This document shows, piece by piece, positions 24,701 through 51,668 of a DNA stretch of 64,000 bases. The DNA is taken from positions 31,322 through 95,321 of the forward strand of contig DHON01000092.1 in assembly GCA_002409965.1 (NCBI GenBank), written 5' to 3'. Positions within the stretch are counted from its first letter, which is position 1, and every line of letters begins with the position of its first letter. This stretch comes from Firmicutes bacterium UBA5389. GTDB taxonomy: Bacteria > Bacillota > DTU025. Both the position numbers and the translations under genes were made by a program. The notes beneath the pieces were generated by a model, which was not told the DNA's origin, searched no databases, and worked only from the letters and a program-made list of their open reading frames with translations.

Positions 24701-24789
24701 GAAGCTTGCGCACCGGCACCTTGAAGGTTCTACGCACACAGGGATTCGTGTGTGCAACCCAATACCTCCACTTGTCATGACAGCGTGAG

Positions 24790-25653: not shown

Positions 25654-25666
25654 CTCTGTTACCCCC

Positions 25667-26605: not shown

Positions 26606-26629
26606 TCTCTCTGTGTTGATTTCGGCAGA

Positions 26630-26675
26630 CACCGCAGCCGGGGAGCCTGCAATGTGCTCTCTGCCGGCTGCGGTG
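26630..26675 (-). repeat. intercistronic inverted repeat (12-bp GC-rich stem, 22-nt loop) between C45 gene and panE
   Basis: CACCGCAGCCGG ... CCGGCTGCGGTG, perfect. No U-tract. Confidence 0.6.
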
Positions 26676-26763
26676 CTTGCAGCAAGTCCACGGTCAGACA
26701 AAGCAGACCTGTCAGTTCAAATGTGCAAGAACGCTGCGGATCACGGTAGTTAGTGCAGCACGA

Positions 26764-28185: not shown

Positions 28186-28263
28186 ATCTTCTGCCTCCTA
28201 TACGTTTTTCTGGTTCAGCCGCAGGCGTGGCCAACTCGACTCTCCAGTTACTTATCCATTCCG

Positions 28264-28314
28264 GGCGGGCTGCAGCCGCGGACCTTTTGCAGGGATCTCG
28301 GTTTGCAGCCCGCC
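28264..28314 (-). repeat. intercistronic inverted repeat (11-bp GC-rich stem, 29-nt loop) between SBP gene and C45 gene
   Basis: GGCGGGCTGCA ... TGCAGCCCGCC, perfect. No U-tract. Confidence 0.6.
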
Positions 28315-28347
28315 TCGCATACTCAGCGCTTTAGAGGGCTGACTGGA

Positions 28348-29538
28348 CTATTTCCATGCCTCCACGTACGTTACGCATTTCTTGATTCCGTTCTCTATGA
28401 CGAAGAGGAATGAGCCCTTGTCGGAAGGTATTCCGTCCTTCATCGACCACGCCATCTGTATACCGTCGAAGTCCTGCATGTTGCGGATGTAATCTCTGAT
28501 CATGATCCGCTCTGCCTTCAGCTTCTTGGGATCGCCGGTTACGTCCGTCTCCTCGATGGCCCTCTTGATCATGTAGACGCAGTCGTAGTATATGGTGGAC
28601 AGGGAAGTCGGATCCAGTCCGCCATGATCCTTCTTGTAGTTCTCCTTGAAGGTCTTCCAGCGGGGCGTCTCTTTCGCGCCGTCGAAGTAGGCATAGATGT
28701 AGCACCCATTGAGGCTATCCCTCCCTGTGGTATACAGAGGCATATCGTCAGCGCTGCTGAAAATGAGTATCTTGGACTTATCCTTCCAGCCGTACTTCTC
28801 TAGCTCGATGATTATCTTCGCAACCTTCTCAGATGTGCACGTGAACATGAATCCATCGGGCTTCTGTGCCAACGCCCTGACAACCAGGGGTCCGAAAGTG
28901 ACCGCGTCTGTCGGAACCTCAACGGTGAAGGTTTCTACTCCAACGGAAGCCAGCCCGTCAGCGTGAGCGTCCGCCATGCTCGGCCAGCAAGCCCACTTCT
29001 CCACAAACTGGATAACCTTCTTCATCTTGGGCTGCTCCTTGGCCCAGGCAGCGGCTGCGGGGGCCAGGTGTTTGTCCGTGGGTGGATACCACGACAGCGT
29101 CCAGGGGAAGAACTGAGTTGAGTACTCGTAGGTCGTGGAAGCTGTCATGCTGAACAGGCCTTGCCTCACAGCCAGCGGCATGGCTGCCATTATGCAGGCT
29201 TCAGGCACTGGACCCAATGACACCAGGCTCTTGTTGACGATCCTGGCCATTTGCTCAACGGCCTTCTCCGGGCTGACACCCGTGTCGTAGTCCACGATTT
29301 TGACGGGCTTGCCCTTGATGCCGCCCTTCTGGTTGATCTCGTACGCCGCCCTGTGCGCGCTCCAGGCCATGTACTCGCCGATGCTCGCGATAGGTCCGGT
29401 CAAGCAGTTCAGAAACGGTATCTCCCACTGATCTACCACAGCGGCTGAAGGCGCGCCGAGGCTAGAGCCGGCGAGACAGACTAGAAGAACCGCCATGATC
29501 AGCAGACCTGCGAATGACTTAGTGTGCTTTCCCATCAT
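28348..29538 (-). CDS. ABC transporter substrate-binding protein, branched-chain amino acid (HAAT/LivK) family, secreted
   Basis: Signal peptide MMGKHTKSFAGLLIMAVLLVCLAGSS and a periplasmic-binding-protein type I fold. ATG 29538 behind GGGAGGAG. The upstream track extension overlaps the permease and is judged non-coding. Confidence 0.8.
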   Translation of the reverse strand: MMGKHTKSFAGLLIMAVLLVCLAGSSLGAPSAAVVDQWEIPFLNCLTGPIASIGEYMAWSAHRAAYEINQKGGIKGKPVKIVDYDTGVSPEKAVEQMARIVNKSLVSLGPVPEACIMAAMPLAVRQGLFSMTASTTYEYSTQFFPWTLSWYPPTDKHLAPAAAAWAKEQPKMKKVIQFVEKWACWPSMADAHADGLASVGVETFTVEVPTDAVTFGPLVVRALAQKPDGFMFTCTSEKVAKIIIELEKYGWKDKSKILIFSSADDMPLYTTGRDSLNGCYIYAYFDGAKETPRWKTFKENYKKDHGGLDPTSLSTIYYDCVYMIKRAIEETDVTGDPKKLKAERIMIRDYIRNMQDFDGIQMAWSMKDGIPSDKGSFLFVIENGIKKCVTYVEAWK

Positions 29539-29549
29539 CTTTCTCCTCC

Positions 29550-30431
29550 CTAGTTGTTGCATTTGCTGATTCCACCCGATACCTTGCCTTTCAGACGTAG
29601 AAGCATCCGTTTCGTGACTAACCCACCGGGGAGTACGAGGACAATGACAATAAGGGTGAGCGCGTAGATGACTTGGCGCCACGAGGCGATAGCGCTAGGA
29701 AGAAGCAACTGCATGCCTTCTAGGATCGGAACTGAGACTATCACCCCCCACATGGTTGTATGCCCGCCGGCAAAGAGCATGCACATGAGAGTGCCAATGA
29801 CTCCCAGGTTAAAGAACTCGGGGAAGAGACCGCCTATGAGAAACGCGTATAGAGTCCCCGCTAGTCCAGCTAGTGCTCCTGCTGCGACTTGAAAGAACAT
29901 CCCTAGCCTCTTCACGTCGATTCCCAGGGCGGCCGCGGTGTTCTTGTCTACAAAGACCACAGAGGCCGCTCTTCCCAACCGGGAGTGGTCTATCCGGTAT
30001 ATCACCGCTCCCGCATACACGACAAGCAAGTACGTTAGTGGGAGCAAGTGGTTGACCTGTGGAATCCCGAAGAAGCCTATCGTTCCGCCCAGTGCCGGGG
30101 AGTTCTCGACGGCTGTCTTCAGAATGAAGATAATGGTCAAGCCGATGATCACCACCGTAAAGCAGGGCGCATCGCCGATAGCAAACGAAGGGATCAAGCA
30201 GATCAAGATTCCGATGAGTATTCCGACTACGACTATCAGGGCAAAGGGCCATGACCATTCGCGGGCAGCGAAGCCGGAAAAATAGGCAGACGCAAGCATG
30301 CAAGCAACGGTCAAGTAATGGAGTTGCCCAACGCGGTAAGGCAGGTAAAGCGACCAACACATCAGGATATTAATCCCTGTAAATGACAAGAAGTAATACA
30401 GTACTGGCGACAACTGTCCAGCCTCCCCCAT
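29550..30431 (-). CDS. branched-chain amino acid ABC transporter permease (LivM-like)
   Basis: Polytopic permease of the HAAT family. No SD before ATG 30431. Alternative start TTG 30413 behind GGGGAGG. Confidence 0.8.
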   Translation of the reverse strand: MGEAGQLSPVLYYFLSFTGINILMCWSLYLPYRVGQLHYLTVACMLASAYFSGFAAREWSWPFALIVVVGILIGILICLIPSFAIGDAPCFTVVIIGLTIIFILKTAVENSPALGGTIGFFGIPQVNHLLPLTYLLVVYAGAVIYRIDHSRLGRAASVVFVDKNTAAALGIDVKRLGMFFQVAAGALAGLAGTLYAFLIGGLFPEFFNLGVIGTLMCMLFAGGHTTMWGVIVSVPILEGMQLLLPSAIASWRQVIYALTLIVIVLVLPGGLVTKRMLLRLKGKVSGGISKCNN

Positions 30432-30448
30432 CTCGTAATATCTAGAGG

Positions 30449-31324
30449 CTATGCTTCAATGCCGAACAACCCTTCGGGCTTTATCAGCATGATTACGAGC
30501 ATCATCATGAAAGCAATGGCGTTTGACCATGACCCGGCGAGATACCCAATTGCCATGCTCTCGGCGATTCCAAGCAGCAACCCGCAAACCAGGCCGCCCT
30601 TCAGATTGCCCAGACCGGCGAGGATGGAAGCCGCTACTACCTTCATCCCCACGAAGTCGCCGAGACCCGGCGATGCTGATCCCAACAGCCTGGCGAACAT
30701 GACAGCCGTTAGGCCGCCCAGAAGACCCGCTATGGCGTAGCTTAGGACCCGCGTCTTGATGATGGGTATTCCTATGATCGATGAGAGGAGGCTGTTTTCG
30801 CTTATGGCCCTCAGCACCCTTCCCTGCCTTGTTCGATACAGCAGGTAGAAGAAGGCCGCCACGGCAGCGATGCCTCCGAATAGGGCGTACGCTTGCCCTG
30901 CAGAGAAGGCGATCAACCCAGAGCTGAAAATACTCTTTCCTACCCACTCTGTCGGAAAAGCAATAGGATATCCGTAGTTGAGCAGGTGAGACATTACGTC
31001 CGTTATCAAGAGAGCCATGCTCATTGAAACCACGAAAGACACGTTGATGTCCAGGCCGTGTCTCTTGGCAAGCAGGCGGAATATCGGTTCAATCGCCACG
31101 TTCACCACTATGCAACTGGCAACGGAGGCGAGCACGACCAGGAGCATGTTGTCGGTGTGCCGCAATACTCCCCAGCATACGTACATGGACAATACCACCA
31201 GGTGCGGATAGGCGAACTGGATGATCTTCGCGACTAGGAGCATTAGGTTGAACCCCAGTACCAGCAGAACATACATGCTGCCCAAAGAGAGACCGTTAAG
31301 CAGTTGAGCCGCAAATATTTCCAT
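30449..31324 (-). CDS. branched-chain amino acid ABC transporter permease (LivH-like)
   Basis: LNGLSLGSMYVLLVLGFNLM is the LivH signature. RBS AAGGAGA. Confidence 0.8.
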   Translation of the reverse strand: MEIFAAQLLNGLSLGSMYVLLVLGFNLMLLVAKIIQFAYPHLVVLSMYVCWGVLRHTDNMLLVVLASVASCIVVNVAIEPIFRLLAKRHGLDINVSFVVSMSMALLITDVMSHLLNYGYPIAFPTEWVGKSIFSSGLIAFSAGQAYALFGGIAAVAAFFYLLYRTRQGRVLRAISENSLLSSIIGIPIIKTRVLSYAIAGLLGGLTAVMFARLLGSASPGLGDFVGMKVVAASILAGLGNLKGGLVCGLLLGIAESMAIGYLAGSWSNAIAFMMMLVIMLIKPEGLFGIEA

Positions 31325-31353
31325 AGTATGTATTCTCCTTAACTCTGGTTGAA

Positions 31354-32058
31354 CTACACGTTGCTGCCCAAATAGGCACGACGGACTTCCGGATGACTCA
31401 TGAGTTCCTGCGTGAGACCTTGCAGCACCACTCTGCCGGTCTCCATGACATAAGCGCGATTGGCGAACTCAAGCGTCTTCTTTGCGTTTTGCTCTGCCAG
31501 GAGAATCGTATAACCCTTATTGTTCAGGTCGCCCAGGATATCAAAAATCTCGCTGACCACTTTTGGAGCGAGGCCCAGCGAGAGTTCGTCTACCATGACC
31601 AGTTCAGGTTTTGACATCAGTGTCCGGGCTATCGACAGCATCTGCTGTTCCCCGCCGCTCAGGGTTCCTGCAGTTTGGTGAATCCTCTTGCGCAAAACCG
31701 GAAAAGACTCGAACACGTTCTCCAGGTTGTCGTTGAAATCCTGAGGGTTGTGGTAAGCCCCCAATTGGAGATTCTCCAAGACGGTCATCGTGGAAAACAC
31801 CAAGTGCCCTTCGGGTATGAGGCCCAGACCCATATTGGCGACCTTGTCGGTGCTGCTGTTGGTGATGTCGTCTCCCAAGAAGAGTACTTTCCCGCTCTGA
31901 ACCTTCTGAACACCGAGAATCGCTTTGAGCAACGTTGTTTTGCCTGCGCCGTTCGCACCGATCAGGGCCACGATCTCTCGTCTGTCCACTTCAATGCTGA
32001 TATTCTCGAGCGCCCTCACTGGCCCGTAGGATACGGAAACACCTTCAACCTTAAGCAT
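31354..32058 (-). CDS. ABC transporter ATP-binding protein (LivF-like)
   Basis: Walker A GANGAGKTT, signature LSGGEQQML. ATG 32058 overlaps the livG stop (ATGCTTAA). Confidence 0.85.
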   Translation of the reverse strand: MLKVEGVSVSYGPVRALENISIEVDRREIVALIGANGAGKTTLLKAILGVQKVQSGKVLFLGDDITNSSTDKVANMGLGLIPEGHLVFSTMTVLENLQLGAYHNPQDFNDNLENVFESFPVLRKRIHQTAGTLSGGEQQMLSIARTLMSKPELVMVDELSLGLAPKVVSEIFDILGDLNNKGYTILLAEQNAKKTLEFANRAYVMETGRVVLQGLTQELMSHPEVRRAYLGSNV

Positions 32059-32833
32059 GCTGCTCTTCTTCACCGAGATAAGCCTCCAGTACTTTCGGAT
32101 CGCTCTGTATGTGCTTCGGACTCCCCTCGCTGATTTTCTCTCCGAAATTGATGACTGTGACCCAATCACACAGATCGACAACTAAGCTGACATCATGACT
32201 GACTAGGACTATGGTGACTCCAGTATCCCTTATGTGCCTGATAATGCCCTTCAGTTCTTCTGTTTCTTTGAGCCCCATTCCCGAGGTAGGTTCATCCAGA
32301 AGCAATAGCTTCGGATCGAGTACTAAGGCACGAGCAATCTGCACTAGTTGACGTTCCACCCAAACTAGTTCGCCGGCCCAGCGGTGGGCCGAGTCTGCCA
32401 TTCCCACGAAATCCAAAGCCTCTTGTGCCTTTTGCCTGATCTCCCTCTCCTGAGCACAGAAAACACGAGGCCGCCGAAGAAAAGTCCCGATGGGATCGAT
32501 ACCGGAATAGTAGTACATACCTGCCATAACATTCTCCAGTACAGTATCGGGCATCATCATGGCAGCCTGGAAGGACCGAGCAAGCCCCATTCTGGCAACG
32601 GCCTGAGCCGGAAGGTTGGTTGTGTTCACAGAGTCGAGATAGATCTGCCCTTCGGTGGGCGGCAGCAATCCCGAAACCAGGTTAAAGAACGTTGACTTCC
32701 CGGCCCCGTTGGGGCCGATCAGCCCGTGAATCCTACCCCTCTTCACATTGACATCCAGGTTGGTAATTGCCTTGACACCACTGAAATGCTTACTTAGCCC
32801 CATGGTCGAGAGGATTGCCTCGTCTGAAGTCAT
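32051..32833 (-). CDS. ABC transporter ATP-binding protein (LivG-like)
   Basis: Walker A GPNGAGKST and the LivG-specific C-terminal extension. ATG 32833 behind AAAGGAG. Confidence 0.85.
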   Translation of the reverse strand: MTSDEAILSTMGLSKHFSGVKAITNLDVNVKRGRIHGLIGPNGAGKSTFFNLVSGLLPPTEGQIYLDSVNTTNLPAQAVARMGLARSFQAAMMMPDTVLENVMAGMYYYSGIDPIGTFLRRPRVFCAQEREIRQKAQEALDFVGMADSAHRWAGELVWVERQLVQIARALVLDPKLLLLDEPTSGMGLKETEELKGIIRHIRDTGVTIVLVSHDVSLVVDLCDWVTVINFGEKISEGSPKHIQSDPKVLEAYLGEEEQHA

Positions 32834-32919
32834 GCGATCAATGCTCCTTTGCATGCAGCGACTTTGCTTTCTGGCGGCGGCAGGACACTCCATAATCCCC
32901 ATCAATGAACTTGTATAGA

Positions 32920-32948
32920 AGTTTATCGAATATTGCCGATGGTGTCAA
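32920..32948 (-). promoter_or_regulatory. sigmaA-type promoter for the ABC transporter / C45 / panEB operon
   Basis: Minus strand: TTGACA, 17 bp, TAAACT. About 80-nt leader to the livG ATG 32833. Confidence 0.45.
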
Positions 32949-33072
32949 CCATTATCGCCATTACGCCACCGCGTCTGGGTAACGGATTAGGGCGTTTCCC
33001 TGGCGATTACCATAAGAGGATGCCGGTATTATGCTGGGTGGCGCGGCAATGGTAAATACGAAATTTGGGCAT

Positions 33073-33097
33073 AAAAAAAAGCCGGAACTGATCCGGC
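33073..33097 (-). terminator. intrinsic terminator downstream of pnp
   Basis: On the minus strand: GCCGGA-tcagt-TCCGGC followed by TTTTTTTT. Lies 33 nt after the pnp stop. Confidence 0.7.
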
Positions 33098-33129
33098 TGT
33101 GTTGCTATATTGCTATATGCGGCACTAAC

Positions 33130-35328
33130 CTATCTGCGCCGTCGGTCACCCCCGCCATCTCGCCTGGGCCCGGCGCTCCCTCGCTGGAAGCCCGCTCGCG
33201 GCGGCCTCGGACCCCGGTCGAAAGGCTGCTCCACATAGCCTTCCGGCTTGGGCAGCAGGTCCTTGCGCGACAGGTTGATCCTGCCCTGGCTGTCGATCTC
33301 GGTCACCCTCACCGTCACCTCATCGCCTATGTTCACAACGTCTTCCACAGTTGCAACCCGCTCATAGGCAAGCTGAGAGATGTGCACGAGGCCTTCTTTG
33401 CCCGGGAGCACTTCCACGAAAGCGCCGAACGGCATTATCCGCGTTACCTTGCCTGTATAGACTTCGCCCTGCTCAGGATCGTGCACCAGCTCGTTGATCA
33501 TGGCCACCGCGCGTTTGGCGTCGTCTTCATCGATCGATGCAATGAACACGCGACCATCGTCTTCGATGTCGATCTTGGTGTTGGTCAGCTCGATGATCTT
33601 GCGTATCATCTTGCCCCCAGGTCCGATCACATCGCGGATCTTGTCGGGGTCAATGCTTATCGTGAGCATCCTGGGCGCGTAGGGCGACAGCTCAGGACGG
33701 GGCTCCGGCAGAGCCTCCAGCATCTTGCCGAGGATGAACATCCTGCCTCGATTCGCCTGCTCCAGCGCCGACCGGAGTATGTCGCGGGAGATGCCCTTGA
33801 CCTTCATGTCCATCTGTATCGCCGTCACGCCGTCGCGTGTGCCTGCCACCTTGAAGTCCATGTCGCCGAGATGGTCTTCCATGCCCTGGATGTCAGTGAG
33901 TATGGCGAGTCTGTCGTCGTGCTTGACCAAACCCATCGCTACGCCAGCTACCGGCTTTTTGATCGGCACGCCCGCGTCCATAAGCGAGAGTGTGCTGCCG
34001 CAGATGGATGCCTGGCTGCTCGAGCCGTTGGATTCAACGACCTCCGACACCAGCCTGATCGTATATGGAAACTCCTCTTCAGAGGGGATAACGGGCAGAA
34101 GAGCGCGCTCAGCCAGCGCACCGTGGCCAATCTCGCGTCTCCCCGGGCCCCGGATGGGACGCACCTCGCCAACGCTGTACGGCGGGAAGTTGTAGTGGTG
34201 TATGTAGCGCTTCGACTCCTCTAGGCCCAGGTCGTCGATGATCTGCATTTCGCCGACGGCTCCCAGCGTGCATGTGGTGATCACCTGAGTCTGCCCGCGC
34301 CGGAACATGGCCGACCCGTGCACACGGGGAAGCAGGCCCACAGCGCAGTCTATCGGGCGGATTTCGTCCATTGCCCGGCCGTCCGGTCGAATGTGCTCTG
34401 CCGTGATCATCTTGCGCACTATCTGCTTGAGCATGCTGTCCAGCGCCGCGTCTATGCACTTGTGAGGCGTGTCTTCGCCCATTTCCTCCTCGAAATGCGC
34501 ATGGGTCGCCTGTCGGACGGCGCTGGTCAGTTTCTCGCGGGCCAGTTTGTCGGGGTTGCGCACGGCCGCATCCAGCTGCGCGTGGGCGAACACCTCAATC
34601 TTCGCAGCAAGCTCCGGATCGGGTTCGAGTAACTTGAACTCCCGCTTGGGCACGCCGACCGCTGCGATGATCTCGTCCTGAAAAGCGATTATCTCCTTGA
34701 TCGTGTCGTGCCCGCGCATGATCGCCTCCAACACCTGCTCCTCGGAGACCTCGTTGGCCGCGGCCTCCACCATGAGCACTGCATCGCGGGTACCTGCGAC
34801 CACCAACGACAGGCTCGACTTATCCAGCTCTTCCGCGCTGGGGTTGATCACGAATTCGTCGTCCACGATGCCGACCTTGACGCCTGCGATGGGGCCGTCG
34901 AAGGGCACATCGGAGATGCCGAGCGCAATGGACGCTCCGTTCATCGCCAGCACCGATGGTTCCACCCCAGGCTCAACGGACATCACTACCGCGACTACCT
35001 GGACATCGTTTCTGAAACCCTCCGGAAACAGCGGCCGTATCGGCCTGTCGATCTGCCGCCCCGCCAGGATCGCCGCCTCGCTCGGGCGGCCTTCGCGCTT
35101 GATGAACCCTCCAGGGATCTTGCCCACTGAATAGAGCCTTTCCTCGTAGTCCACCAAGAGCGGGAAGAAGTCTATGCCCTCCCTCGGCTCCTTGGAAGCA
35201 GTCGCGGTGACCAGGACCACTGTATCGCCGTACCGTACCAGCGCAGACCCCCCGGCCTGCCGGGCGACGTAGCCGGTTTCAACCGACAGCTTCCTTCCTG
35301 CCACGACTGTCTCAAACGTCTGATGCAT
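33130..35328 (-). CDS. pnp: polynucleotide phosphorylase with a basic RG-rich C-terminal tail
   Basis: Two RNase PH domains, KH ([10 protein letters not shown]) and S1 ([19 protein letters not shown]). The tail is [27 protein letters not shown]. Confidence 0.95.
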
Positions 35329-39125: not shown

Positions 39126-41795
39126 CTAGAGCTCGCGCTTGACAGCCTCATTGCCGTACCCCTCGATCACATCGCCCTCACGCACGTCATTGAAGCCTTC
39201 TATTCCAATGCCGCACTCGAACCCTGCAGCCACCTCGCGCACATCATCCTTGAACCGCTTGAGCGAGCCGATCTTGCCATCGTGTATCACAACGCCATCG
39301 CGTACCAACCGCACCTGGGCTGATCGCGCGATCTTGCCGTCGGTTACATAGCAGCCGGCCACGACCCCTGCCTTGGGGACCTTGAAGGTCGCCCTCACCT
39401 CCGCATGGCCGTAGACGACCTCGCGGAACTCCGGCTCGAGCAGCCCCTCCATGGCCTTCTTGACATCGTCGATGGCCTCATATATCACGCGATAGAGCCT
39501 CACGTCGACCTGCTCAACCTGGGCGCTCGACGCCCCGGCCGTATCGGGCCGCACGTTGAAGCCGATGATTACTGCGTTGGACGCAGACGCCAACATCACA
39601 TCGGACTCGTTGACGGCGCCCACGCCGCCGTGAATGACGTTCACGCGCACCTCGTCTGTGGACAACCGCTCAATCGCCTGCTTCAGAGCTTCAGTGGAGC
39701 CCTGCACGTCTGCCTTGATGATGACCCTGAGTTCCTTGGTTTGGCCCTCCTTGATCTGGTTGAACAGATCCTCGAGCGACACCTTCTTGCTAGTCTCCCC
39801 GATCTCCGAGATGCGCTTGCGCTCAGCGCGTCTTTCAGCGACCTGCCTGGCCTCGCGCTCATCAGTTACCGACTGGAAGACATCGCCGGCTTCAGGCACA
39901 TAGCTCAGGCCCAGAACCTCCACAGGCATCGATGGAGTCGCCTGTTCCAATGCCCTGCCACGGTAATCGGCCATTGCCCGCACCCTGCCGTAGACCTCGC
40001 CTACCAGGAATGAGTCGCCTACCTTCAGCGTGCCCTTCTGGATGAGCACCGTCGCGACCGGTCCGCGCCCGCGGTCCACCCTGGCCTCGATCACAGTGCC
40101 CAGTGCAGGACGGTCGGGATTGGCCTTGAGGTCGCGCATGTCCGCCACGAGCAGGATCATCTCCAGCAGGTCCTCAAGCCCCTTCTTCTGAAGAGCCGAC
40201 ACGGGCACCATCACGGTATCGCCGCCCCACTCTTCGGGAACCAACCCCATCTCCGACAGCTGCCGCTGCACTCGCTCAGGCTGTGCGTGCGGCTTGTCGA
40301 TCTTGTTCACTGCCACTACTATCGGTACGTTGGCATCGCGCGCATGGTTGATGGCTTCGATTGTTTGAGGCATCACGCCATCGTCGGCCGCCACCACGAG
40401 CACCGCCACATCAGTAGCTTGAGCGCCCCTAGCTCGCATTGCGGTGAATGCCTCATGGCCGGGAGTATCTAGGAAGGTAATCTTCCTTCCGTTCAGCTCT
40501 GCCTGATAGGCGCCTATATGCTGAGTAATGCCGCCTGCCTCGGTGGCAGTTACGTTGGCCTCCCGTATCGCGTCCAAGAGAGACGTCTTGCCATGGTCCA
40601 CATGCCCCATTATCGTGACCACGGGCGGTCTGGGCTTCAGGCTCTCCGAGGCGTCTTCGATTTCAGCGATGGCAACTTCGCGCTCCTCGCGCTCCGAAGT
40701 CAACTCGGCTTCGAAACCGAGTTCGGTCGCTAGAATTTGCGCTACTTCGCCCTCGATTTCCTGGTTTATGCCAGCCATCACGCCCATCCGGATGAGCCTG
40801 CTGACAGCCTCAGGCGCAGATATCTCCAGCTTCGCCGCGAGATCGCGGACGGCTATCGCCTCGCCTATCTCCACGCGCCGGATCTTGGCGGGCTTCTCGC
40901 GCCTTCGCCCAATCCGCCGGACTACAATGTCATCGGCGCCGTCAATATCCCCGGCCCTCACACGGCGCTCTATGAGACGCGCATCGCCGAGGGGAGCTGA
41001 GGTCGGAGCCCTTTTCCTGCCGCGCCTGTCGGGCCTGCGAGCCCCTCTGGCCGTATCCATCTCATCCTCGCCGCCGCCGCGCCGCCTTCCCCGGCCCGAC
41101 CATGCGGGCTTGCCCTTCCCGCCGCCTCTAGCGGCGGGAGCCGGAGCCGAAGACGGTGGAGGCGGGGGAACCGAAACAGCCGGACCGCGCCTGAAGCCTC
41201 CCCCGGGTTGCACCGGCCCGCCAGGCCGCGGTCGCGCCCCTGGCCCAGCAGGCGTAGGGTAACGGTCAGGCCGGGCAAACCTATCGCTTCGCTCGGGCCC
41301 AAATGGTTGCGGCGCCTGTTGCGGTTGCACCGGCGCCGCTGGGCGCGGACGCGCACCGCCGGCCCCTTGAGGCCTGTGCCGTGCAGGTATGAATGGATAG
41401 GAAGGGTCCAAGGGTTTGGGCGATCTGGCATCATACGCCCGCTCAGGACGTCTGTCATCCACTGGCCGCGACACTGGGCCCGGCGCGGCCGGTATCCGCT
41501 CCTGCCTGCGCTGAGCATCGGAAGGCCGCAAGTCGGGCGTACGATGCCCCGCGTCGGGGGCATCTCCCTTCGCTGTAGCCGAGGACGGCGATGGAGGCGC
41601 AGCGGACGCGTCCTTCTGATCCTCCGCTTTCTGCGATTCAGGCCCAAATTTCCTCATCACATAGCGCGCCGCATTCTCGTCGATCGCGCTCATGTGATTC
41701 TTCGCCTTCACGCCTAGCTCATTTAGGAGCGTAACTAGGTCCTTGCTAGGCATATCAAGTTCTTTGGCCAGCTCGAATACTCTCACTTTAGCCAT
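39126..41795 (-). CDS. infB: translation initiation factor IF-2 (with long Pro/Ala/Arg-rich low-complexity N-terminal region)
   Basis: G domain ([21 protein letters not shown]) and C-terminal beta-barrels. RBS GGGGGTGA. Confidence 0.95.
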
Positions 41796-42234: not shown

Positions 42235-43314
42235 CTAGAAGTCGATTTCGAACCGGGGTATTCCCCCCAGCCCGACCTGGGACTCGCTCTTGATGTCGAT
42301 CTTCCAGCCGGTGATCTTTGCAGCCAACCGCGCGTTCTGCCCTTCCCTGCCAATGGCCAGCGACAGCTGGTAATCGGGAACCACCACCATCGCGACCTTG
42401 GAGATGAAGTCGGGCCTCACCTCTACTACCTTGGCCGGGCTCAACGCGTTCGCTATGAACGTGGAGTAGTCCTCACTCCATGGTATCACATCTATCTTCT
42501 CGCCAGCCAGTTCCGCCACGACCGCCTGGATGCGGGCGCCCCGCGGACCGACACAGGCTCCAACCGGGTCTACATTAGGGTCATGGGCGAGCACAGCGAC
42601 TTTGGACCTTGCGCCTGCCTCTCGCGCTATGCCGCGTATCTCAACAACCCCATCGGAGATCTCGGGAATCTCCAGTTCCAACAGCCGTTTGAGCAACCCC
42701 GGATGTGTTCTGGACAGCATTACCATGGGTCCTCGACTGGTCTTGCGCACTTCCACCACGTAGCACTTCAGCCTCATCCCGGGCTCATACCGTTCGGTGG
42801 AGATCTGCTCCTGCTGAGGCAGGGACGCTTCAGTCTTGCCCAGATCCAGCACTACATTTCGGGGCTCGACACGGCTTACGGCGCCTGTGACGACATCGCC
42901 TTCGCGGTTAGAGAACTGCTCATAGAGGACGCCGCGCTCGGCCTCGCGGATGCGTTGCACCACTACCTGCTTGGCAGTTTGCGCCGCTATTCGTCCGAAC
43001 TCCTTGGGGGTGACCTCGTTTTCGATCACATCGCCCGGGTTGTAGCCCGGGTCGATCGCCCTGGCATCGTCCAGCAATATCTCACCTTTGGGATCGTCCA
43101 GCTCCTCCACAACGGTTTTGCGGGCAAGCACCAGCACTTTCCCAGTTGCAGGGTCTATGAGGACTCGCACGTTCTGCGACGAGCCGTAGTGCCTCTTGAA
43201 CGCCGAAACAAGCGCCGCCTCTATCGCATCAAGCAGCACTTCCTTGGTTATCCCCCGCTCCTTCTGTAGCTCATCCAGAGCGCGGATTATCTCGAGGCCG
43301 TCATTCTGACTCAT
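42235..43314 (-). CDS. nusA: transcription termination/antitermination factor NusA
   Basis: S1 and two KH domains. ATG 43314 behind AGGAGGTG. 14-nt overlap with the rimP end. Confidence 0.95.
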
Positions 43315-43792
43315 CACCGCGCACCTCCTTGAAAGGAACCGCAAGCCGGGCTGCGCTGATCCTTTGCCGCGGTATTTCAACAGCCGTGCCGTCCACCTCC
43401 ATCAAAACCGAATCGCCGGCGTTTCCCATGAGCAGTCCCTCGAAGCGCTTGCGCCCATTGATCTCTGAGTACGTATTGACCAGGGCCCACCTGCCCTTGA
43501 ACTCATCGTATTCTTCATCGCGCCGAAGCGGCTTCTCGCCTGAGGATGACACCTCGAGGATGTAGCTCGCCGGGACGAAATCCTGGCGGTCGAGTTCAGA
43601 GCCTATCGCCGTGGACAGGTTGGCGCAATCGTCGATGGCGACCCCGCCCGGCTTTTCTATGTATACTCGCAGATACCAGTAGCCAGAGTCACGCACGAAC
43701 TCCGCGTCGATGACCTGCAGGCCGAGCGGCCCGGCGGCTGACTCGGCAACACCCTTTGCGCGGCTTTCGATCCGCCGACGATCCATTCTCAC
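43301..43792 (-). CDS. rimP: ribosome maturation factor RimP
   Basis: RimP/YlxS-like sequence in the position immediately upstream of nusA. Start GTG 43792 or ATG 43786. Confidence 0.85.
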   Translation of the reverse strand: MRMDRRRIESRAKGVAESAAGPLGLQVIDAEFVRDSGYWYLRVYIEKPGGVAIDDCANLSTAIGSELDRQDFVPASYILEVSSSGEKPLRRDEEYDEFKGRWALVNTYSEINGRKRFEGLLMGNAGDSVLMEVDGTAVEIPRQRISAARLAVPFKEVRGDESE

Positions 43793-43980: not shown

Positions 43981-46900
43981 TCAGAACAGCGACAGCTGAT
44001 CCGTCTCGGGCATACCGTCCAGAGCGCCGGTGTCGCGGAGGGTGTCGATGTGCGATCTCGTCAAGCGGGTCCGCTCGCGCAGATCAAGGATGGAACTGAA
44101 CCGTCGCTCCTCCCGCGCCTGCACCACGCTGGCCGCCGCGGCATCGCCCAGCGAAGGCACGCTCACCAGCGGAAGCCGGAGCGATCCCTCCTCGATGGCG
44201 AACTGCGCGGCGCATGACCTGACAATGTCTACAGGAAGGAACGCCACCCCTCGCATCTTGGCTTCCGCCGCCGCCTCCATCATCGTAGCCAAGCTCTTTT
44301 CGCGCGCAGTGGCATCCTGACTGGCGTTGACATCGCGAAGAGCCGTCATGATCTCCTCCACACTCATCAGAGCGATGGAGGAATCGAAGTCGGAAGCCCT
44401 TATGGTGAAGTAGGCCGCGTAGAACTCAACCGGCCGATGCACCTTGAAGTAGGCGATTCGAAACGACATGGTCACGTAGGCTGCAGCGTGAGCTTTGGGG
44501 AACATGTACCTTATCTTGTTGCAGGAATCGATGTACCACTCGGGCACACCGTGCTCCGCCATGAGCCGGTCGTCCCCGTCCGCCAGCCCTTTGCCCTTGC
44601 GCACGCGCTCCATTATCCTGAAAGCGTCCTTTGGCGGCAGCCCGTCTGAGATCAGCCTGTTCATGATATCGTCTCGGCAGGCAATCACATCGGTCAACCG
44701 CGCGACGCCCGACTCGATGAGATCCTGTGCGTTGCTGAGCCAGACGTTAGTGCCATGCGACAGACCGCTGATGCGCACCAGTTCTCCAAAGCTCTTGGGC
44801 CTGGTCGCCTCCAGCATTCCTCGCACGAACTTGGTGCCGAACTCGGGGACCGCCACGGTACCCACAGCCATCCCGCTTTCCCGAGGGTCTAGCCCAAGCG
44901 CTTCGACTCCGGAGAAAATCGACATGGTGGCCGGATCGTCCATGGGTACATCATCGGCGCGCATGCCGGTCAGATCCTCCAGCATCTTGATCATGGTCGG
45001 GTCATCGTGGCCGAGCAGGTCCAGTTTGAGCAGGCAGTCGTGGATCGTCTTATACTCAAAATGCGTTGTGACGATATCCGAGTTCCTGTCGTTGGCGGGA
45101 CGCTGCACGGGAGTGAACTCGTGCACGTCTCTGCCTCTCGGCACAATCATCACGCCGCCCGGATGCTGGCCGGTGGTCCTCTTCACGCCTGAGCATCCGC
45201 GGGCAAGCCTCGCGACTTCCGCATTGCGCAGGGTGAGGTTTCGGGATTCGCAGTACGCCTTGACGAAGCCGTAGGCAGTCTTGTCAGCGATGGTGGCAAT
45301 GGTGCCGGCCCGGAACACGTGGTCGGCACCGAACAGCTCCTCGGCATACTTGTGGATCACAGACTGATATTCGCCCGAGAAGTTCAGATCGATGTCGGGA
45401 ACCTTGTCGCCCTCGAAACCCATGAAGGTTTCAAAGGGGATCCCCTGCCCGTCTTTGCCTAGCTTGGCGCCGCAACGGGGGCACTGGCTATCCGGCAGAT
45501 CGTAGCCCGACTCGACTGCCGCGCCGTGCTCGAAGTCGCTGTACTGGCAATTGGCGCACAGATAGTGAGGAGGCAGCGGGTTGACCTCGGTTATGCCGCA
45601 CATCGTGGCTACAAGCGATGACCCGACTGACCCTCGAGAACCTACCGGATATCCATCCTCAACTGATTTCTGCACCAGCTTTGCAGCGATGTCGTAGTTG
45701 ACGGCAAAGCCGTTTCCGATGATCGACGACACTTCCCGGGCCAGACGGGCTTGGACGATCTGTGGCAGCGGATCGCCGTAGAGCTCGCGGGCTCTCTGGT
45801 AGGTGCGCGAGCGCACATCCTCGTCGGCGCCTTCTATCTCCGGAGTGGCGAGTTGGTTAGGGACTGGTCTGATTCGCTCGGCTCTACCCGCAATCAGCCT
45901 GGGGTTGTCGATGACCACCTCGCGGCGTGCCTCCTCCCCGAGGTAGGCGAAGTCGCGAAGCATCTCGTCGGTGGTGTGATAGTACAACGGCGCCTGATGG
46001 TCGGCGTCATCGTAGCCCTGCCCTGCCATGAGCACCCGGCGGTACGCCTCATCTGCCGGCTCAAGAAAATGGACATCGCCCGTTGCGGCCACCGGAATCC
46101 CCAGGCGCTTGCCTATGCCGTATATTCGGGCTGTGATGGCCTGCACATCGTCGATTCCGCGAAGCCGTCCCGACCGTATCAGGAACTCATCGTTGGCCGC
46201 AGGCATGATTTCCAGGTAGTCATAGAACAGGGCAATCCGGTCCAGGTCCGCGTCGGAAGCGCCGTCCAGCGCTGCGCGGAACAGCTCTCCGGCGGAGCAT
46301 GCCGAACCGATGAGAAGGTTCGAGCGCACCTGGGCAAGGCGCGCCCTGGGGATCCGGGGATGCCTGTGGAAGTACTTAAGATGCGACTCAGACACCAGCG
46401 TGTATAGGTCTCTGAGGCCCGCCTCGTTCCTGACTAGAATGGTGATGTGATGAGTGGGGCAGTCATTGGCGGTGATCTCGTCCACCAGGTAGCCTTCCAT
46501 GCCGAATATTATCTGGACTCCATGCTTCTCTCCCGCGGCGAAAGCTTCGGGGAACGACTGGACCACTCCGTGATCGGTGATGGCCACCGCTGGGTGATTC
46601 CAAGCAGCGGCTTGTCGCACAGCGGCCTCCACCTCGCATACGGAATCCATCGCGCTCATCTTGGTGTGCAGGTGCAGTTCGACGCGCTTGTCGGGCGAGG
46701 TATCGTGCCTGGTTGGGGCCGAGTCGGGCATGATGTCCGACACCGCGAGCACTATCTCCCGCGCATACTGATCGTACTGCACCTCTCCTCGCACGCGCGC
46801 CCACTGCCCTTCCGTGAGCCCGAAACTAGGCTCTTCGGGATCGCAGAAGCACTTGCACATGATGGAGTCCTCTCGATCAGTTATGGAGAAGCTCACTATC

Positions 46901-47700
46901 TTGAGGCCGGTCCGGGTCAGACGCTCCACATACCCGAACACCTCGCCCCTAGCCACCGCCTTCTTTTGCCCTTGCACCAGGCTGGACACGGGCTGAGCTG
47001 GGTCGGTGAACCAACGCCCGCGTATGGCGCCTTCGTCTGTCACGACACGTCGGCGCCTGCCCCGACGCTTCTCAGTTGCCGGCGACGGCGCAGGCAACTG
47101 AGGAGGCGCGCTCGCGGCATCAGCATCCGACGGCATGCACACATCATCCTCGGGCGGGTCCCGGGGCGCATCGAACTCGCCCACGTCTATCATGACCGCC
47201 ATTCTGACGCCGGCGACATGGTGGAGAGCATCCGAGATCAGGGATGCGCATCCGCGCTCTGCGAGTTTGGTCCGTTGCACCTCCCCCGGAACCTCTACGA
47301 TCATGCAGTCGCCGTCTATCCGGCACCTGGCTTGGCCAAGCCACACCCCTACGCTGGGAGCGCAATCGAGGACGCGCTCCACGACCCGTTCCCAGCAACG
47401 CTCCAATCCGCTGGCATCGACAGCCGCGGCTGCTGCAGCCAGCTTCACTTGCGCATCGCAGCGATCTCCCAGAATCTTGTGAAAAGCCAAACAGATCAGC
47501 TCACAGCACTCCTCGCTGAAAGCGGCAACGCCGGGGCTGGCCAGATGCACCACCCATTGGCCAGACTCCGGATGTATATCGATCTTCTCTATTCTGCTCG
47601 AAGACGGAATGGAATCGGGCGCGCTCATGCCGGCGCGTCTGAATATATATCCAAGCCCCGCCCGGTCGTCGGACGGAACCACCACGAGCGTTACAGACAA
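43981..47700 (-). CDS. polC: DNA polymerase III alpha subunit, PolC-type, without the exonuclease insert
   Basis: PolC N-terminal domain (IEKIDIHPESGQWVVHL), OB domain, PHP (VELHLHTKMS), PolC palm with Cys4 zinc finger (CANCQ...CPRCG) and C-terminal duplex-binding region. GMEGYLVDE is joined to HITILVRNEAGL by only about 12 residues, where Bacillus PolC carries a roughly 180-aa DEDD exonuclease. TTG start behind AGGAGGG. Confidence 0.9.
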   Translation of the reverse strand: MSVTLVVVPSDDRAGLGYIFRRAGMSAPDSIPSSSRIEKIDIHPESGQWVVHLASPGVAAFSEECCELICLAFHKILGDRCDAQVKLAAAAAAVDASGLERCWERVVERVLDCAPSVGVWLGQARCRIDGDCMIVEVPGEVQRTKLAERGCASLISDALHHVAGVRMAVMIDVGEFDAPRDPPEDDVCMPSDADAASAPPQLPAPSPATEKRRGRRRRVVTDEGAIRGRWFTDPAQPVSSLVQGQKKAVARGEVFGYVERLTRTGLKIVSFSITDREDSIMCKCFCDPEEPSFGLTEGQWARVRGEVQYDQYAREIVLAVSDIMPDSAPTRHDTSPDKRVELHLHTKMSAMDSVCEVEAAVRQAAAWNHPAVAITDHGVVQSFPEAFAAGEKHGVQIIFGMEGYLVDEITANDCPTHHITILVRNEAGLRDLYTLVSESHLKYFHRHPRIPRARLAQVRSNLLIGSACSAGELFRAALDGASDADLDRIALFYDYLEIMPAANDEFLIRSGRLRGIDDVQAITARIYGIGKRLGIPVAATGDVHFLEPADEAYRRVLMAGQGYDDADHQAPLYYHTTDEMLRDFAYLGEEARREVVIDNPRLIAGRAERIRPVPNQLATPEIEGADEDVRSRTYQRARELYGDPLPQIVQARLAREVSSIIGNGFAVNYDIAAKLVQKSVEDGYPVGSRGSVGSSLVATMCGITEVNPLPPHYLCANCQYSDFEHGAAVESGYDLPDSQCPRCGAKLGKDGQGIPFETFMGFEGDKVPDIDLNFSGEYQSVIHKYAEELFGADHVFRAGTIATIADKTAYGFVKAYCESRNLTLRNAEVARLARGCSGVKRTTGQHPGGVMIVPRGRDVHEFTPVQRPANDRNSDIVTTHFEYKTIHDCLLKLDLLGHDDPTMIKMLEDLTGMRADDVPMDDPATMSIFSGVEALGLDPRESGMAVGTVAVPEFGTKFVRGMLEATRPKSFGELVRISGLSHGTNVWLSNAQDLIESGVARLTDVIACRDDIMNRLISDGLPPKDAFRIMERVRKGKGLADGDDRLMAEHGVPEWYIDSCNKIRYMFPKAHAAAYVTMSFRIAYFKVHRPVEFYAAYFTIRASDFDSSIALMSVEEIMTALRDVNASQDATAREKSLATMMEAAAEAKMRGVAFLPVDIVRSCAAQFAIEEGSLRLPLVSVPSLGDAAAASVVQAREERRFSSILDLRERTRLTRSHIDTLRDTGALDGMPETDQLSLF

Positions 47701-47728: not shown

Positions 47729-48358
47729 TCAGTCCCAGTGCACTACGGTTTTCAAGACATCCCAGTACATTTTGACCCGTGAGGCCGCCCCTTTCACCGG
47801 GCCTAACTTCTCTTCCTTCATCACCTGGGTGAGCTGGGCAAGCTTTACCTCGACCACCCTCATCCCCACTTCTTTTGCATGCCGGGTGAGCAGCGCCTCG
47901 ATGCCAAATCCCGACTCGCCCAAGTCAAGGCCGTCGAACGCGCTGCGCCTCATCGCGCGCTGGCCCGACAGCCACGGAGTTATCGCCTGTGCCAGGTCGG
48001 TGGCCGGACGCCCATCCCCGAAGATCCCGACAGTCATGTCAGCCTGATCAGACAGCACCGGGTCGAGCAGGTTCTCCACGTGTTTGACCGTCAGGCCGAC
48101 CAGGTCTGCATCCAGGAAAAGCAGCACATCGGCCGGGGTAGACTGGATTCCGCGCGCAACGGCGCCTCCCTTGCCGCAATTGCGGTCCATGCGCACCACA
48201 TGCGCCCCATGGGCCGCTGCGACTTTCGCAGTATCATCATCTGAGCCGTCATCAACCACCAGTATCTCGTCCACCATTCTGCTCTGGCGGACTACATCCA
48301 GCACGGCGGCGATTCTGGGGCCTTCGTTGTATGCAGGCACTATCGCCGAGACGCGCAT
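47729..48358 (-). CDS. family-2 glycosyltransferase
   Basis: AIVPAYNEG...VVDDGSDDDT...LFLDADL (GT-A DxD). ATG 48358 behind GGGAGGTG. Confidence 0.6.
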   Translation of the reverse strand: MRVSAIVPAYNEGPRIAAVLDVVRQSRMVDEILVVDDGSDDDTAKVAAAHGAHVVRMDRNCGKGGAVARGIQSTPADVLLFLDADLVGLTVKHVENLLDPVLSDQADMTVGIFGDGRPATDLAQAITPWLSGQRAMRRSAFDGLDLGESGFGIEALLTRHAKEVGMRVVEVKLAQLTQVMKEEKLGPVKGAASRVKMYWDVLKTVVHWD

Positions 48359-48380
48359 GAAAAGCACCTCCCACAAATCC

Positions 48381-49460
48381 CTAGACGTGTTGCCCCGCCG
48401 CTTTGGCGGAAGCAGCCGCCCTTGCGGCTTCGACCAGCGCGGGCACCATCTCTGCTTCTCGGACACGGCGCACCACGCGTCCATTTGCGAATATCAACCC
48501 GACTCCGTTGCCGCACGCCAGCCCCACATCGGCGTCTCGCGCCTCGCCCGGGCCATTCACTTCGCAGCCCATCACGGCAACGGTGATCGGCACAGTGATG
48601 GTGGCGATCGCCTCTCGCACTGACGACACTATGCCCACTACATCCCCCCGCCGCCTGCCGCATGTTGGGCAGGAGACTATGACGGGCCCAAACGATCTGA
48701 GCTCCAGCGCGGTCAGGATTTCGCGACCGGCCGACACTTCGGCGACGGGGTCGCCGGTTAGGCTGACCCTTATGGTATCGCCGATGCCCTCGTCCAGGAT
48801 GACGCCGATCCCGACCGCCGACTTGACCAGGCCGCTCGGAGGCGGGCCTGCCTCGGTCACTCCCACGTGCAGCGGGTAATTCACCCCGGCTGCCAGCAGG
48901 CGGTAAGCTTGCACTGTGCGGGGAACATCCGATGCCTTGAGCGACACGACGATATCGTAGAACCCTTCCTGCTCCAAGAGGCCGATGTGGCCCAAGGCCG
49001 CCTCTACCATGGCGCGCGCTGTACGGCCGTACCTCTGCACAAGCTCACGAGGCAGAGAGCCCGAGTTGACGCCGATGCGTATCGGAATGCCCCTGTCGCG
49101 AGCAGCGGTCGCCACCTCGCGCACCCCCGCTGGGCTGCCAATGTTGCCCGGGTTGATCCTGAGCTTGTCGATGCCCACCTCAATGCACGCAAGCGCGAGC
49201 CTGCAGTCGAAGTGTATGTCGGCTACCAAAGGAATCTCCGTGGCTTTTCGAATCAGGCGAAGGGCGTCCACTGCCTCCGCGTTGGGCACTGCGATGCGCA
49301 CCAGCTCGCATCCGGCACTCTCAAGCGCGTTGATCTGTGCAATAGTCGCCTCTGCATCACGTGTATCGGTATTGGTCATTGACTGAACCGACACCGGGGC
49401 GCCGCCGCCAATGGGCACGCGCCCGGCCGATACCTGCCGTGTATTGTTTCGAGTAAACAT
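48381..49460 (-). CDS. ispG: 4-hydroxy-3-methylbut-2-enyl diphosphate synthase
   Basis: VQSMTNTDTRD and C-terminal [4Fe-4S] cysteines (CPTCGR). Confidence 0.9.
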   Translation of the reverse strand: MFTRNNTRQVSAGRVPIGGGAPVSVQSMTNTDTRDAEATIAQINALESAGCELVRIAVPNAEAVDALRLIRKATEIPLVADIHFDCRLALACIEVGIDKLRINPGNIGSPAGVREVATAARDRGIPIRIGVNSGSLPRELVQRYGRTARAMVEAALGHIGLLEQEGFYDIVVSLKASDVPRTVQAYRLLAAGVNYPLHVGVTEAGPPPSGLVKSAVGIGVILDEGIGDTIRVSLTGDPVAEVSAGREILTALELRSFGPVIVSCPTCGRRRGDVVGIVSSVREAIATITVPITVAVMGCEVNGPGEARDADVGLACGNGVGLIFANGRVVRRVREAEMVPALVEAARAAASAKAAGQHV

Positions 49461-49491: not shown

Positions 49492-50526
49492 TTAGCGCAC
49501 CACGAGCCGCGAAATATCGCTCACTGTAGCATATACCATGAGCAGCATGAGTAGCGCAAGACCCACGAATTTCAGAGCCTCCTCGATCTGGGGCGATAGC
49601 GGCCTTCCGCGAACCGCCTCCAGTGCGAGAAGGAGAATCCACCCTCCGTCAAGAATCGGCACCGGCATCAGGTTGAGCAACCCCAGGCTGGTGGAGATGA
49701 GGGCGATGAACATCATCAGGCTGGGAAGGCCCTGCTGCGCGGCTTGAGCTGACATTCCGGCGATGCCAAGGGGCCCCGACACCTCGGGCTTGGTCCTGCC
49801 GGATAGCACTGCCCAGAGCGAAGTGACAGTGGTATCGACGACCCCCCAAGTGTACCTGAGCGCTCCGCCCACAGTGCCTCGGGTTTCGGCCCTGACAGGC
49901 GACTCCGTCAGCCTCACGCCTATCCGTCCCACTCTGACCTGGGCATCGTAGTCAGGCACCACATACAACGTCTCTCGCTGTCCATCCCTCTGAACTTCCA
50001 CGTCCATGCGCCTACCCCAGCTGGCCGATATCGTGTTCACAAACCCGGCCACCGATGCCACAGGCCTGCCGTTGACGCTCACGATAGTATCGCCCGCCCG
50101 AAAGCCTGCGACCTCGGCGGGGCTTGCGTCCACCACATCCACGACCGTGGCCATGGGCACCCCGTAGGCGGAAAACAGGCCGGTCAGTATCGCCACAGCC
50201 AGCACGAAGTTCATGAGCGGCCCCGCCGCCACTATGAGTATCCTCTGCCAGAAGGGCCGGTTTACGAAGCTCGCAGGGTCGTCCGGGTCCGCCTGTTCCT
50301 CCGCAAGCTCCGAATCGTCCATGCCCGCCAGCCTACACATGCCGCCAAGAGGCAACGCGCGCACAGCGTAGAGCGTCTGACCCACTTGCCTCGCGAAAAG
50401 ACGGGGGCCAAACCCGAAGGCGAACTCGTACACTCGCACTCCGCACAGCCTCGCAGCCCCAAAATGGCCCAGCTCATGAACGAGCACTACCAGGCCAACT
50501 ACTACTATGAAAGCGAGCGCATACAT
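49492..50526 (-). CDS. rseP: RIP zinc metalloprotease RseP/RasP (site-2 protease with PDZ)
   Basis: HELGHF (HExxH), PDZ domain, NLMPVPILDGG. ATG 50526 behind GAGAGGTG. Confidence 0.85.
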   Translation of the reverse strand: MYALAFIVVVGLVVLVHELGHFGAARLCGVRVYEFAFGFGPRLFARQVGQTLYAVRALPLGGMCRLAGMDDSELAEEQADPDDPASFVNRPFWQRILIVAAGPLMNFVLAVAILTGLFSAYGVPMATVVDVVDASPAEVAGFRAGDTIVSVNGRPVASVAGFVNTISASWGRRMDVEVQRDGQRETLYVVPDYDAQVRVGRIGVRLTESPVRAETRGTVGGALRYTWGVVDTTVTSLWAVLSGRTKPEVSGPLGIAGMSAQAAQQGLPSLMMFIALISTSLGLLNLMPVPILDGGWILLLALEAVRGRPLSPQIEEALKFVGLALLMLLMVYATVSDISRLVVR

Positions 50527-51668
50527 ACGCCGCACCTCTCTTCCACCGACTGCCGGGCCCACCTATCTGCCAGAACGATATTGTCGAGCGACAGTTCCCC
50601 GCCGACAGCGCATTCGCGCATGACCTCGGCCACAACCGAAGCTATGCCTTGAAAACGGAGCGCGCCCCGGAGGAACAGGCCGACTGCCGCCTCATTTGCC
50701 GCCGACATGACTGCCGGCGCGATCCCGCCGCGACGTAGAGCCTCATGCCCGAGCAACACGCCGGGGAAGCGCTCTGTATCGGGGCGGGCGAAAGTCAGCG
50801 CCCTCAGCTGAGCGAAGTTGAGCTTCGTAGCGAGCCCTTCGCGCCTTGTGGGATACGTCAGCGCATACTGTATGGGAGTGCGCATGTCGGCCGCTCCCAT
50901 CTGGGCGATCACTGATCCGTCAGCGAATTCGACCATAGAATGCACAACGCTCTCGCGGTGCACGACAATCTCTATGATATCCGGGGAGACTTCGAAAAGC
51001 CAGTGGGCCTCCACCACTTCTAGTGCCTTGTTGATCATTGTGGCTGAATCCACCGATATCTTGGGCCCCATTCTCCAGTTGGGATGTGCGAGCGCTTCCT
51101 CCACGGCGACGTGCGATAGGTCGGCCCTGTCGCGAAACGGCCCTCCGGACGCAGTCAGTATGAGACGCGACAACTCGGGCCTGTCCAGCCCGGCTATGCA
51201 TTGCCAGATGGCCGAGTGCTCGCTGTCCACCGGCCTTATGGACACGCCCGCCCGCCGGGCGCGCTCCATAACGATGCCGCCGGCCGCTACGAGTGTCTCC
51301 TTGTTCGCCAGTGCCACGTCATGACCCGCGTCGATGGCCGCCAGAGTTGGATACACGCCGCCAAATCCCACGACCGCGTTGACCACGACACTGTGCTCCT
51401 CCATGGCGGCCAGCTCGCATATTCCGTCCATTCCCACGAGTAACCTCGGGGTCGGCGAAATCTCGCGCAACAGACTCTGCGCCTCGCCCGCCATCCGCTC
51501 ATCACCCACTGCACACGCAGCCGGCTTGAACTCCCGCGCCTGATCGGCCAGGAGACGGAGGTTGGACCAAGTAGAAAGCCCGCTCACGTCGAGGCCTAAA
51601 GACCTTGCCACATCGATTGTTTGGGCGCCCACAGAACCTGTGGAGCCCAGAATGCAGATTGCGCGCAT
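50505..51668 (-). CDS. dxr: 1-deoxy-D-xylulose 5-phosphate reductoisomerase
   Basis: ICILGSTGSVGAQTIDV (NADPH-binding) and central DXP-binding motifs. Confidence 0.9.
   Translation of the reverse strand: MRAICILGSTGSVGAQTIDVARSLGLDVSGLSTWSNLRLLADQAREFKPAACAVGDERMAGEAQSLLREISPTPRLLVGMDGICELAAMEEHSVVVNAVVGFGGVYPTLAAIDAGHDVALANKETLVAAGGIVMERARRAGVSIRPVDSEHSAIWQCIAGLDRPELSRLILTASGGPFRDRADLSHVAVEEALAHPNWRMGPKISVDSATMINKALEVVEAHWLFEVSPDIIEIVVHRESVVHSMVEFADGSVIAQMGAADMRTPIQYALTYPTRREGLATKLNFAQLRALTFARPDTERFPGVLLGHEALRRGGIAPAVMSAANEAAVGLFLRGALRFQGIASVVAEVMRECAVGGELSLDNIVLADRWARQSVEERCGVCMRSLS

Follow-up and report, generated by a model that had tools for sequence, protein, structure and literature searches.

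Introduction

A DEDD exonuclease (Exo) placed within the PHP domain is a hallmark of 86-94% of PolC-type replicative polymerases. Here we analyse a polC gene from outside that majority, located at positions 43981-47700 (minus strand) of a 64,000-nucleotide stretch of DNA from Firmicutes bacterium UBA5389 (assembly GCA_002409965.1, contig DHON01000092.1, positions 31,322 to 95,321), the whole of which is referred to as the window. It encodes a PolC-type DNA polymerase III alpha subunit of 1239 aa, an Exo-less variant with an intact PHP metal site. In the survey by Timinskas et al. (NAR 2014, PMC3919608) the Exo insertion was absent in 6% of PolC sequences and the nine metal-binding positions of the PHP domain were strongly conserved in PolC. 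One extra Thermotogae copy aside, Exo-less PolC was exclusive to Clostridia and Negativicutes, in which PolC is paired with DnaE1, and it made up 16% of the PolCs in PolC+DnaE1 genomes (Table 2, PMC3919608).

In M. tuberculosis DnaE1 the PHP exonuclease serves as replicative proofreader, and its trinuclear zinc centre is bound by the nine PHP residues (Banos-Mateos et al., 2017, PMC5636811); the Exo domain of PolC sits in a loop adjoining the PHP metal site (PMC5636811). A 2026 survey by the Timinskas group counts a PHP domain as 'active' if it has the pattern HHDHEH[C/H]DH, and notes that the usual set in Clostridia is three nominally active proofreaders, the PHP domain in PolC, the PHP domain in DnaE1 and DnaQ in PolC (PMC12926913). 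Exo-less PolCs offer a natural test of which nuclease, out of the two in C-family replicases, guards fidelity, and PolC is an antibiotic target. We know of no experimental characterization of a clostridial PolC+DnaE1 replisome.

The window PolC has the same domain order as the Exo-less enzymes of Clostridia and Negativicutes, N-terminal domain (NTD)-OB-PHP-Pol3-(HhH)2, and shares with them the lack of an Exo insert, the intact PHP metal site, the clamp motif and the host group (PMC3919608). There is no architectural difference; the window PolC comes from an uncultured lineage of ~62% GC that is represented by metagenome-assembled genomes (MAGs) only. With PolC architecture, no DEDD insert, a position among Exo-less PolCs in sequence clustering and a Clostridia-type host, the protein belongs to the published Exo-less subclass, still inside PolC, and adds one more member, from an uncultured lineage, to a class catalogued in 2014.

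Identity and domain architecture

The gene begins with a TTG start codon and its product is identical to the database protein P0001. Two PolC equivalog models of NCBIfam are passed clearly, NF001688 with 1459.8 bits (cutoff 873) and TIGR01405 with 1358.2 bits (cutoff 1043.45), and all DnaE models stay far under their cutoffs. The top-scoring stretch, residues 412-1239, corresponds to positions 610-1444 of the 1445 in the PolC equivalog model, so what comes after the junction described below in the protein matches what comes after the Exo region in the model. Pfam identifies OB (residues 254-324), PHP (341-488), DNA_pol3_alpha (629-810), finger (900-1037) and HHH_6 (1151-1231) domains. Residues 233-1239 align end to end, unbroken over the junction, to 3F2B (E = 0, 1164 bits), the crystallization construct of G. 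kaustophilus PolC from which the N-terminal and Exo domains were removed; the engineered ΔExo construct thus mimics the natural window PolC. Because the equivalog scores exceed their cutoffs and the Pfam architecture, the 3F2B match and the canonical gene context (see below) agree, the protein is a PolC with the expected domain set, as a preliminary description of this DNA, made from the letters alone, had recognized. Judged by its sequence, the gene is an orthologous and in all probability functional polC, and its host is an uncultured, Clostridia-type member of the Bacillota with high GC content.

The polymerase core, the (HhH)2 region and a C-terminal clamp-binding motif, QLSLF, are encoded at 43984-45870 (minus strand, as are all polC features; PF07733, PF17657 and PF14579). 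The core comprises a palm with the DID catalytic aspartates (VPDIDLNFSG), a Cys4 finger (CANC...CPRC), thumb and fingers, and the residues of the core, the Cys4 finger and the clamp motif are conserved with respect to 3F2B and nearly invariant across the clade. Identity to canonical PolC (B. subtilis, G. kaustophilus 3F2B and 9QPC) is 50-60% over the core, and the palm, Cys4 finger, fingers, (HhH)2, OB placement, NTD and operon context are the same. The OB domain (about residues 248-326, 46723-46959; PF01336 at 254-324, E = 4e-7) has five strands in an AlphaFold2 (AF2) model and lies on the N-terminal side of PHP, which is the PolC-type order.

The AF2 model covers residues 1-640 with a mean predicted local distance difference test (pLDDT) score of 84.7. 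In a Foldseek search of the PDB it aligned over 615 columns to the full-length PolC 9QPC. The NTD (about residues 10-175, 47176-47671) is modelled as a confident alpha/beta fold; its profile matches are weak (PF11490, E = 0.23; the gamma/tau model NF011513, E = 2e-4 at residues 88-194). The gamma/tau-like match agrees with the published kinship of the PolC NTD to domain V of tau. Between the NTD and the OB domain, residues ~180-215 (47056-47161) form a low-complexity linker, first Pro/Ala/Asp-rich and then with an Arg run (KRRGRRRR), which is predicted to be disordered (pLDDT 35-39) and whose sequence is not conserved across the clade.

The exonuclease insertion site

Canonical PolC carries its DEDD exonuclease of ~200 aa between the fifth and sixth PHP ligands, and the window PolC does not. 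The usual site of this DnaQ-like insert is occupied by a junction, E402-GYLVDEITANDCPTH-H418 (46447-46497), which is defined by the alignment, the AF2 model and the in-frame DNA. The E402 to H418 spacing is 15 residues; when the 120 best homologue clusters are aligned, it is 13-32 residues in 59 Exo-less proteins and 212-219 in 61 Exo-bearing ones. The preliminary description had likewise noted the missing insert and the short connection after GMEGYLVDE, which it gave as about 12 residues and placed near 46.65 kb. The connection is indeed short; the last residue of GMEGYLVDE is 408 and the first of HITILV is 418, which leaves 9 residues, and the position has to be corrected to the coordinates above.

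The comparison with the full-length PolC 9QPC locates the gap at the same point. The 9QPC match is split, with the query up to residue ~408 on 9QPC residues 360-431 and from ~416 on residues 639-830, such that ~207 residues of 9QPC (432-638) have no counterpart in the window PolC. In the AF2 model the junction is a short loop (pLDDT 85-89) joining the strands 396-406 and 417-423, and the DNA encoding it is clean, in frame and unremarkable. The insert is cleanly missing; a loop of DnaE length is left, and the PHP barrel is complete in all other respects. The corresponding loop of M. tuberculosis DnaE1 has 29 residues, as against ~15 here (PMC5636811).

The exonuclease was also sought elsewhere in the protein and the window. 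RNase_T (PF00929) has no match in the window PolC, even at E ≤ 1. A hidden Markov model (HMM) of the Exo domain, built from the inserts of the 61 Exo-bearing PolC relatives, matched none of the window's 690 six-frame open reading frames (ORFs; best E 0.94); as a positive control, it gave E values of 1e-68 to 1e-89 for every Exo-bearing PolC in the fetched loci of related genomes. The model of residues 1-640 contains NTD, OB and PHP folds only, and its PDB matches in Foldseek (PolC, DnaE PHP domains, PHP phosphoesterases and OB proteins) include no RNase-H-like exonuclease. Pfam, the six-frame Exo HMM search and AF2 with Foldseek (residues 1-640) together gave no sign of an exonuclease that is hidden or relocated within PolC. 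Two of the checks proposed in the preliminary description, a profile-HMM scan and an alignment to G. kaustophilus PolC, came out as its reading would have it, with no DEDD exonuclease match inside the ORF and an unbroken match to the ΔExo construct.

The PHP metal site and proofreading

The PHP domain is uninterrupted (about residues 341-610, 45871-46680; Pfam PHP, E = 8e-29). All nine metal ligands, H343, H345, D352, H377, E402, H418, C468, D542 and H544, can be assigned from alignments with 3F2B and with 4JOM, the metal-restored PHP domain of E. coli. The resulting pattern, HHDHEHCDH, is one of those counted as active in the 2026 survey (PMC12926913), and it is found in 120 of 120 homologues and so in all 59 Exo-less ones. 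G. kaustophilus PolC and 9QPC have Asn at the position of D542 (ATGNVH, compared with ATGDVH in the window PolC). Like the window PolC, M. tuberculosis DnaE1 and Thermus Pol III alpha combine a complete nine-residue PHP site (five His, three Asp/Glu and one Cys) with the lack of an integral DEDD domain; unlike it, they belong to the DnaE branch, with the OB domain C-terminal, no NTD and no Cys4 finger. In Thermus Pol III alpha this same type of PHP site acts as a replicative proofreader. Activity of PHP as an exonuclease has been shown in M. tuberculosis DnaE1 and in Thermus, and for the window PolC it is suggested by analogy only.

We propose that the window PolC proofreads in cis, by means of the PHP domain and its complete trinuclear-metal site, which by comparison with DnaE1 is the most economical reading. 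Clostridial PolCs with two nominally active proofreaders would have tolerated the loss of the DnaQ-like insert, and would have done so repeatedly. A DnaE1 with an intact PHP domain of its own is presumably encoded elsewhere in the genome and would share in replication, since by the published rule PolC always co-occurs with DnaE1 or DnaE3. A functional Exo-less PolC with cis proofreading by PHP and a DnaE1 partner elsewhere is the best explanation of the data, to which we would give a probability of roughly 60%. The preliminary description had seen only a choice between exonuclease activity supplied in trans and unusual replication fidelity; this dilemma leaves out what we consider the likeliest answer, the PHP domain with its nine intact ligands.

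Several points weigh against proofreading by PHP. PHP exonuclease activity has not been shown for any PolC, and we found no published assay of an Exo-less PolC in the literature. All 61 Exo-bearing clostridial relatives likewise keep the nine ligands; their conservation is therefore not specific to Exo-less enzymes, and they could have been kept for structure or for metal binding. The S. aureus PolC lacking both the N-terminal and Exo domains was treated as exonuclease-deficient (PMC3656037), and the PHP domain of G. kaustophilus PolC, in which one ligand is mutated, was reported to be inactive, with no PHP exonuclease activity (PMC5636811). Both counter-examples are Bacilli-type enzymes, and at least that of G. 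kaustophilus has the mutated ligand. As polymerases, the engineered ΔExo PolC of S. aureus (PMC3656037) and likewise that of G. kaustophilus (the 3F2B construct) are active, which provides a precedent for a functional PolC without the insert.

Proofreading could instead be supplied in trans by a separate DEDD exonuclease (DnaQ-like or, for example, DinG-type) that docks on the clamp or on PolC itself, the part played by epsilon for E. coli DnaE. Stand-alone homologues of DnaQ are common, with an average of more than three per proteome, and the Exo domain of B. subtilis PolC can proofread for DnaE3 in trans (PMC12926913); mycobacteria use DnaQ as a second proofreader beside PHP (PMC11348249). 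A genome scan with one genome per species, from which 80 related loci were kept, revealed no DEDD ORF within ±10 kb of any of the ~54 Exo-less polC loci, nor is there one in the window, and with the PHP site intact in cis there is no need for a trans factor. We therefore consider it quite unlikely that this PolC relies on such a partner. The same scan excludes a simple gene fission in which the domain was split off and retained beside polC, there being no DEDD neighbour at the Exo-less loci.

A further possibility is that PolC does not proofread and plays a subsidiary part, with bulk synthesis carried out by a DnaE1 whose PHP domain is active, or with a lower fidelity of PolC tolerated because mismatch repair provides backup. 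Timinskas et al. raised a subsidiary role for genomes with PolC and DnaE1, citing the Exo-less PolCs (PMC3919608), and some Clostridia have DnaE1 only. In the clade of the window PolC, however, polC is highly conserved (56% mean column identity), the catalytic, zinc-finger, clamp-motif and PHP residues are nearly invariant and the canonical operon position is kept, a pattern unlike that of a marginal gene; nor would an idle site require the nine PHP ligands to be kept. A non-proofreading, subsidiary PolC appears unlikely on these grounds.

Distribution among relatives

The identical 1239-aa protein is present on 12 contigs from NCBI, ENA, Logan and JGI. Its relatives P0002-P0026 and P0036 (49-84% identity, 1218-1261 aa) are all without PF00929 in precomputed Pfam annotation, and all close relatives come from Bacillota or Clostridia MAGs. 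The Exo-less architecture occurs in 59 of the 120 best homologue clusters, is kept down to 48% identity and accounts for ~54 of the 80 species-representative loci, among which the best matches are Bacillota or Clostridia MAGs at 84, 80 and 77% identity. Labels of the Exo-less loci include Syntrophomonadaceae, Oscillospiraceae, Selenomonadaceae/Schwartzia, Lachnospiraceae, Desulfitobacteriaceae and Anaerovoracaceae; named Exo-less homologues include that of the cultured Thermanaeromonas toyohensis (P0074, 1210 aa) and one from a Limnochordia MAG. Within the clade P0001-P0026 the Exo-less length (1218-1261 aa) is the rule, as it is in many other lineages of Clostridia and Negativicutes. The rarity implied by the preliminary description does not hold, as this is the lineage norm and the variant was published in 2014 (PMC3919608). 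It had also considered that a length of 1239 aa might be normal for the lineage, with an exonuclease fused elsewhere; the length is normal, and no fused exonuclease was found.

These data bear on whether the short protein could be an artefact, that is, an Exo region of ~600 bp collapsed in the assembly, a decaying pseudogene or an exonuclease fused elsewhere in the protein. Apart from the short length itself nothing speaks for this. The same sequence was recovered in independent assemblies and from independent sources, relatives at 49-84% identity show the same short junction of 13-17 residues, the Exo-less architecture is common to relatives down to 48% identity, the reading frame is open over its full length with conserved termini, and no exonuclease fold or profile match occurs anywhere in the protein. 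An artefact is thus extremely improbable, and assembly collapse and pseudogenization are effectively excluded. The concern over a collapsed insert, voiced in the preliminary description, is removed by the occurrence of the same protein on 12 contigs and by the clade-wide architecture.

Some PolC loci are found in assemblies where PolC is not expected from the title, namely the Exo-bearing L053 in Lutibacter sp. and the Exo-less L059 and L068 in Bacteroidaceae and Treponemataceae, respectively. These assemblies are probably contaminated, or their bins mislabelled.

Evolution of the insert

In a neighbour-joining (NJ) tree of the shared core the window PolC lies inside a coherent Exo-less clade, and other Exo-less groups are interspersed with Exo-bearing ones. 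Fitch parsimony, which is independent of the root, requires four changes on the observed tree and four to six in 50 bootstrap replicates; as the tree is an unrooted NJ tree, these counts are indicative only. Clostridial PolCs have switched several times between having and lacking the insert. At the level of an NJ tree we read the pattern as repeated loss of the insert, because repeated re-insertion at one and the same loop is implausible, and the range of junction lengths (13-32 residues) agrees with this. Some Exo-less lineages may nevertheless keep an ancestral state of PolC that predates the capture of the DnaQ domain. Combining the tree with the metal site, Exo-less clostridial PolCs might be the first PolC-type replicases to proofread solely by PHP, having discarded a redundant DnaQ-like insert on at least four separate occasions, a proposal for which we see the odds as even.

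Junctions of 30-32 residues, instead of the 13-20 seen otherwise, occur in four of the Exo-less proteins (P0025, P0026, P0035 and P0041). Independent deletions that ended at different points may have left them behind.

Genomic context

On the minus strand the gene order is dxr-rseP-ispG-GT2-polC-rimP-nusA-infB-rbfA-nrnA, the canonical Bacillota context of polC. Upstream of polC lie dxr (50505-51668), rseP (49492-50562), ispG (48381-49460) and a gene for a GT2 glycosyltransferase (47729-48484); downstream are rimP (43301-43792), nusA (42235-43380) and infB (39126-41795), and past infB, on the same strand, rbfA and then a DHH/DHHA1 NrnA-like protein. The placement between rseP and rimP-nusA given in the preliminary description is correct in outline, with the addition that ispG and the GT2 gene stand between rseP and polC. 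The GT2 gene is unexpected at that position and, as listed, its ORF overlaps that of ispG by ~100 nt.

No second C-family polymerase, dnaE or polC, is encoded in the 64-kb window, where the PolC profile matched only this ORF. An Rfam scan of the window at the gathering threshold returned no matches. The GC content drops from ~0.62 to 0.53-0.57 over window positions 24000-34000. This block lies directly downstream of pnp (33130-35328) and contains panB (24790-25653), panE (25667-26701), a gene for an AAT-family acyltransferase-like protein (26764-28185) and a Liv-type branched-chain amino-acid ABC transporter (28348-32905). It may represent an insert, acquired laterally or distinct in composition, in the otherwise conserved infB-rbfA-nrnA-truB-ribF-pnp region.

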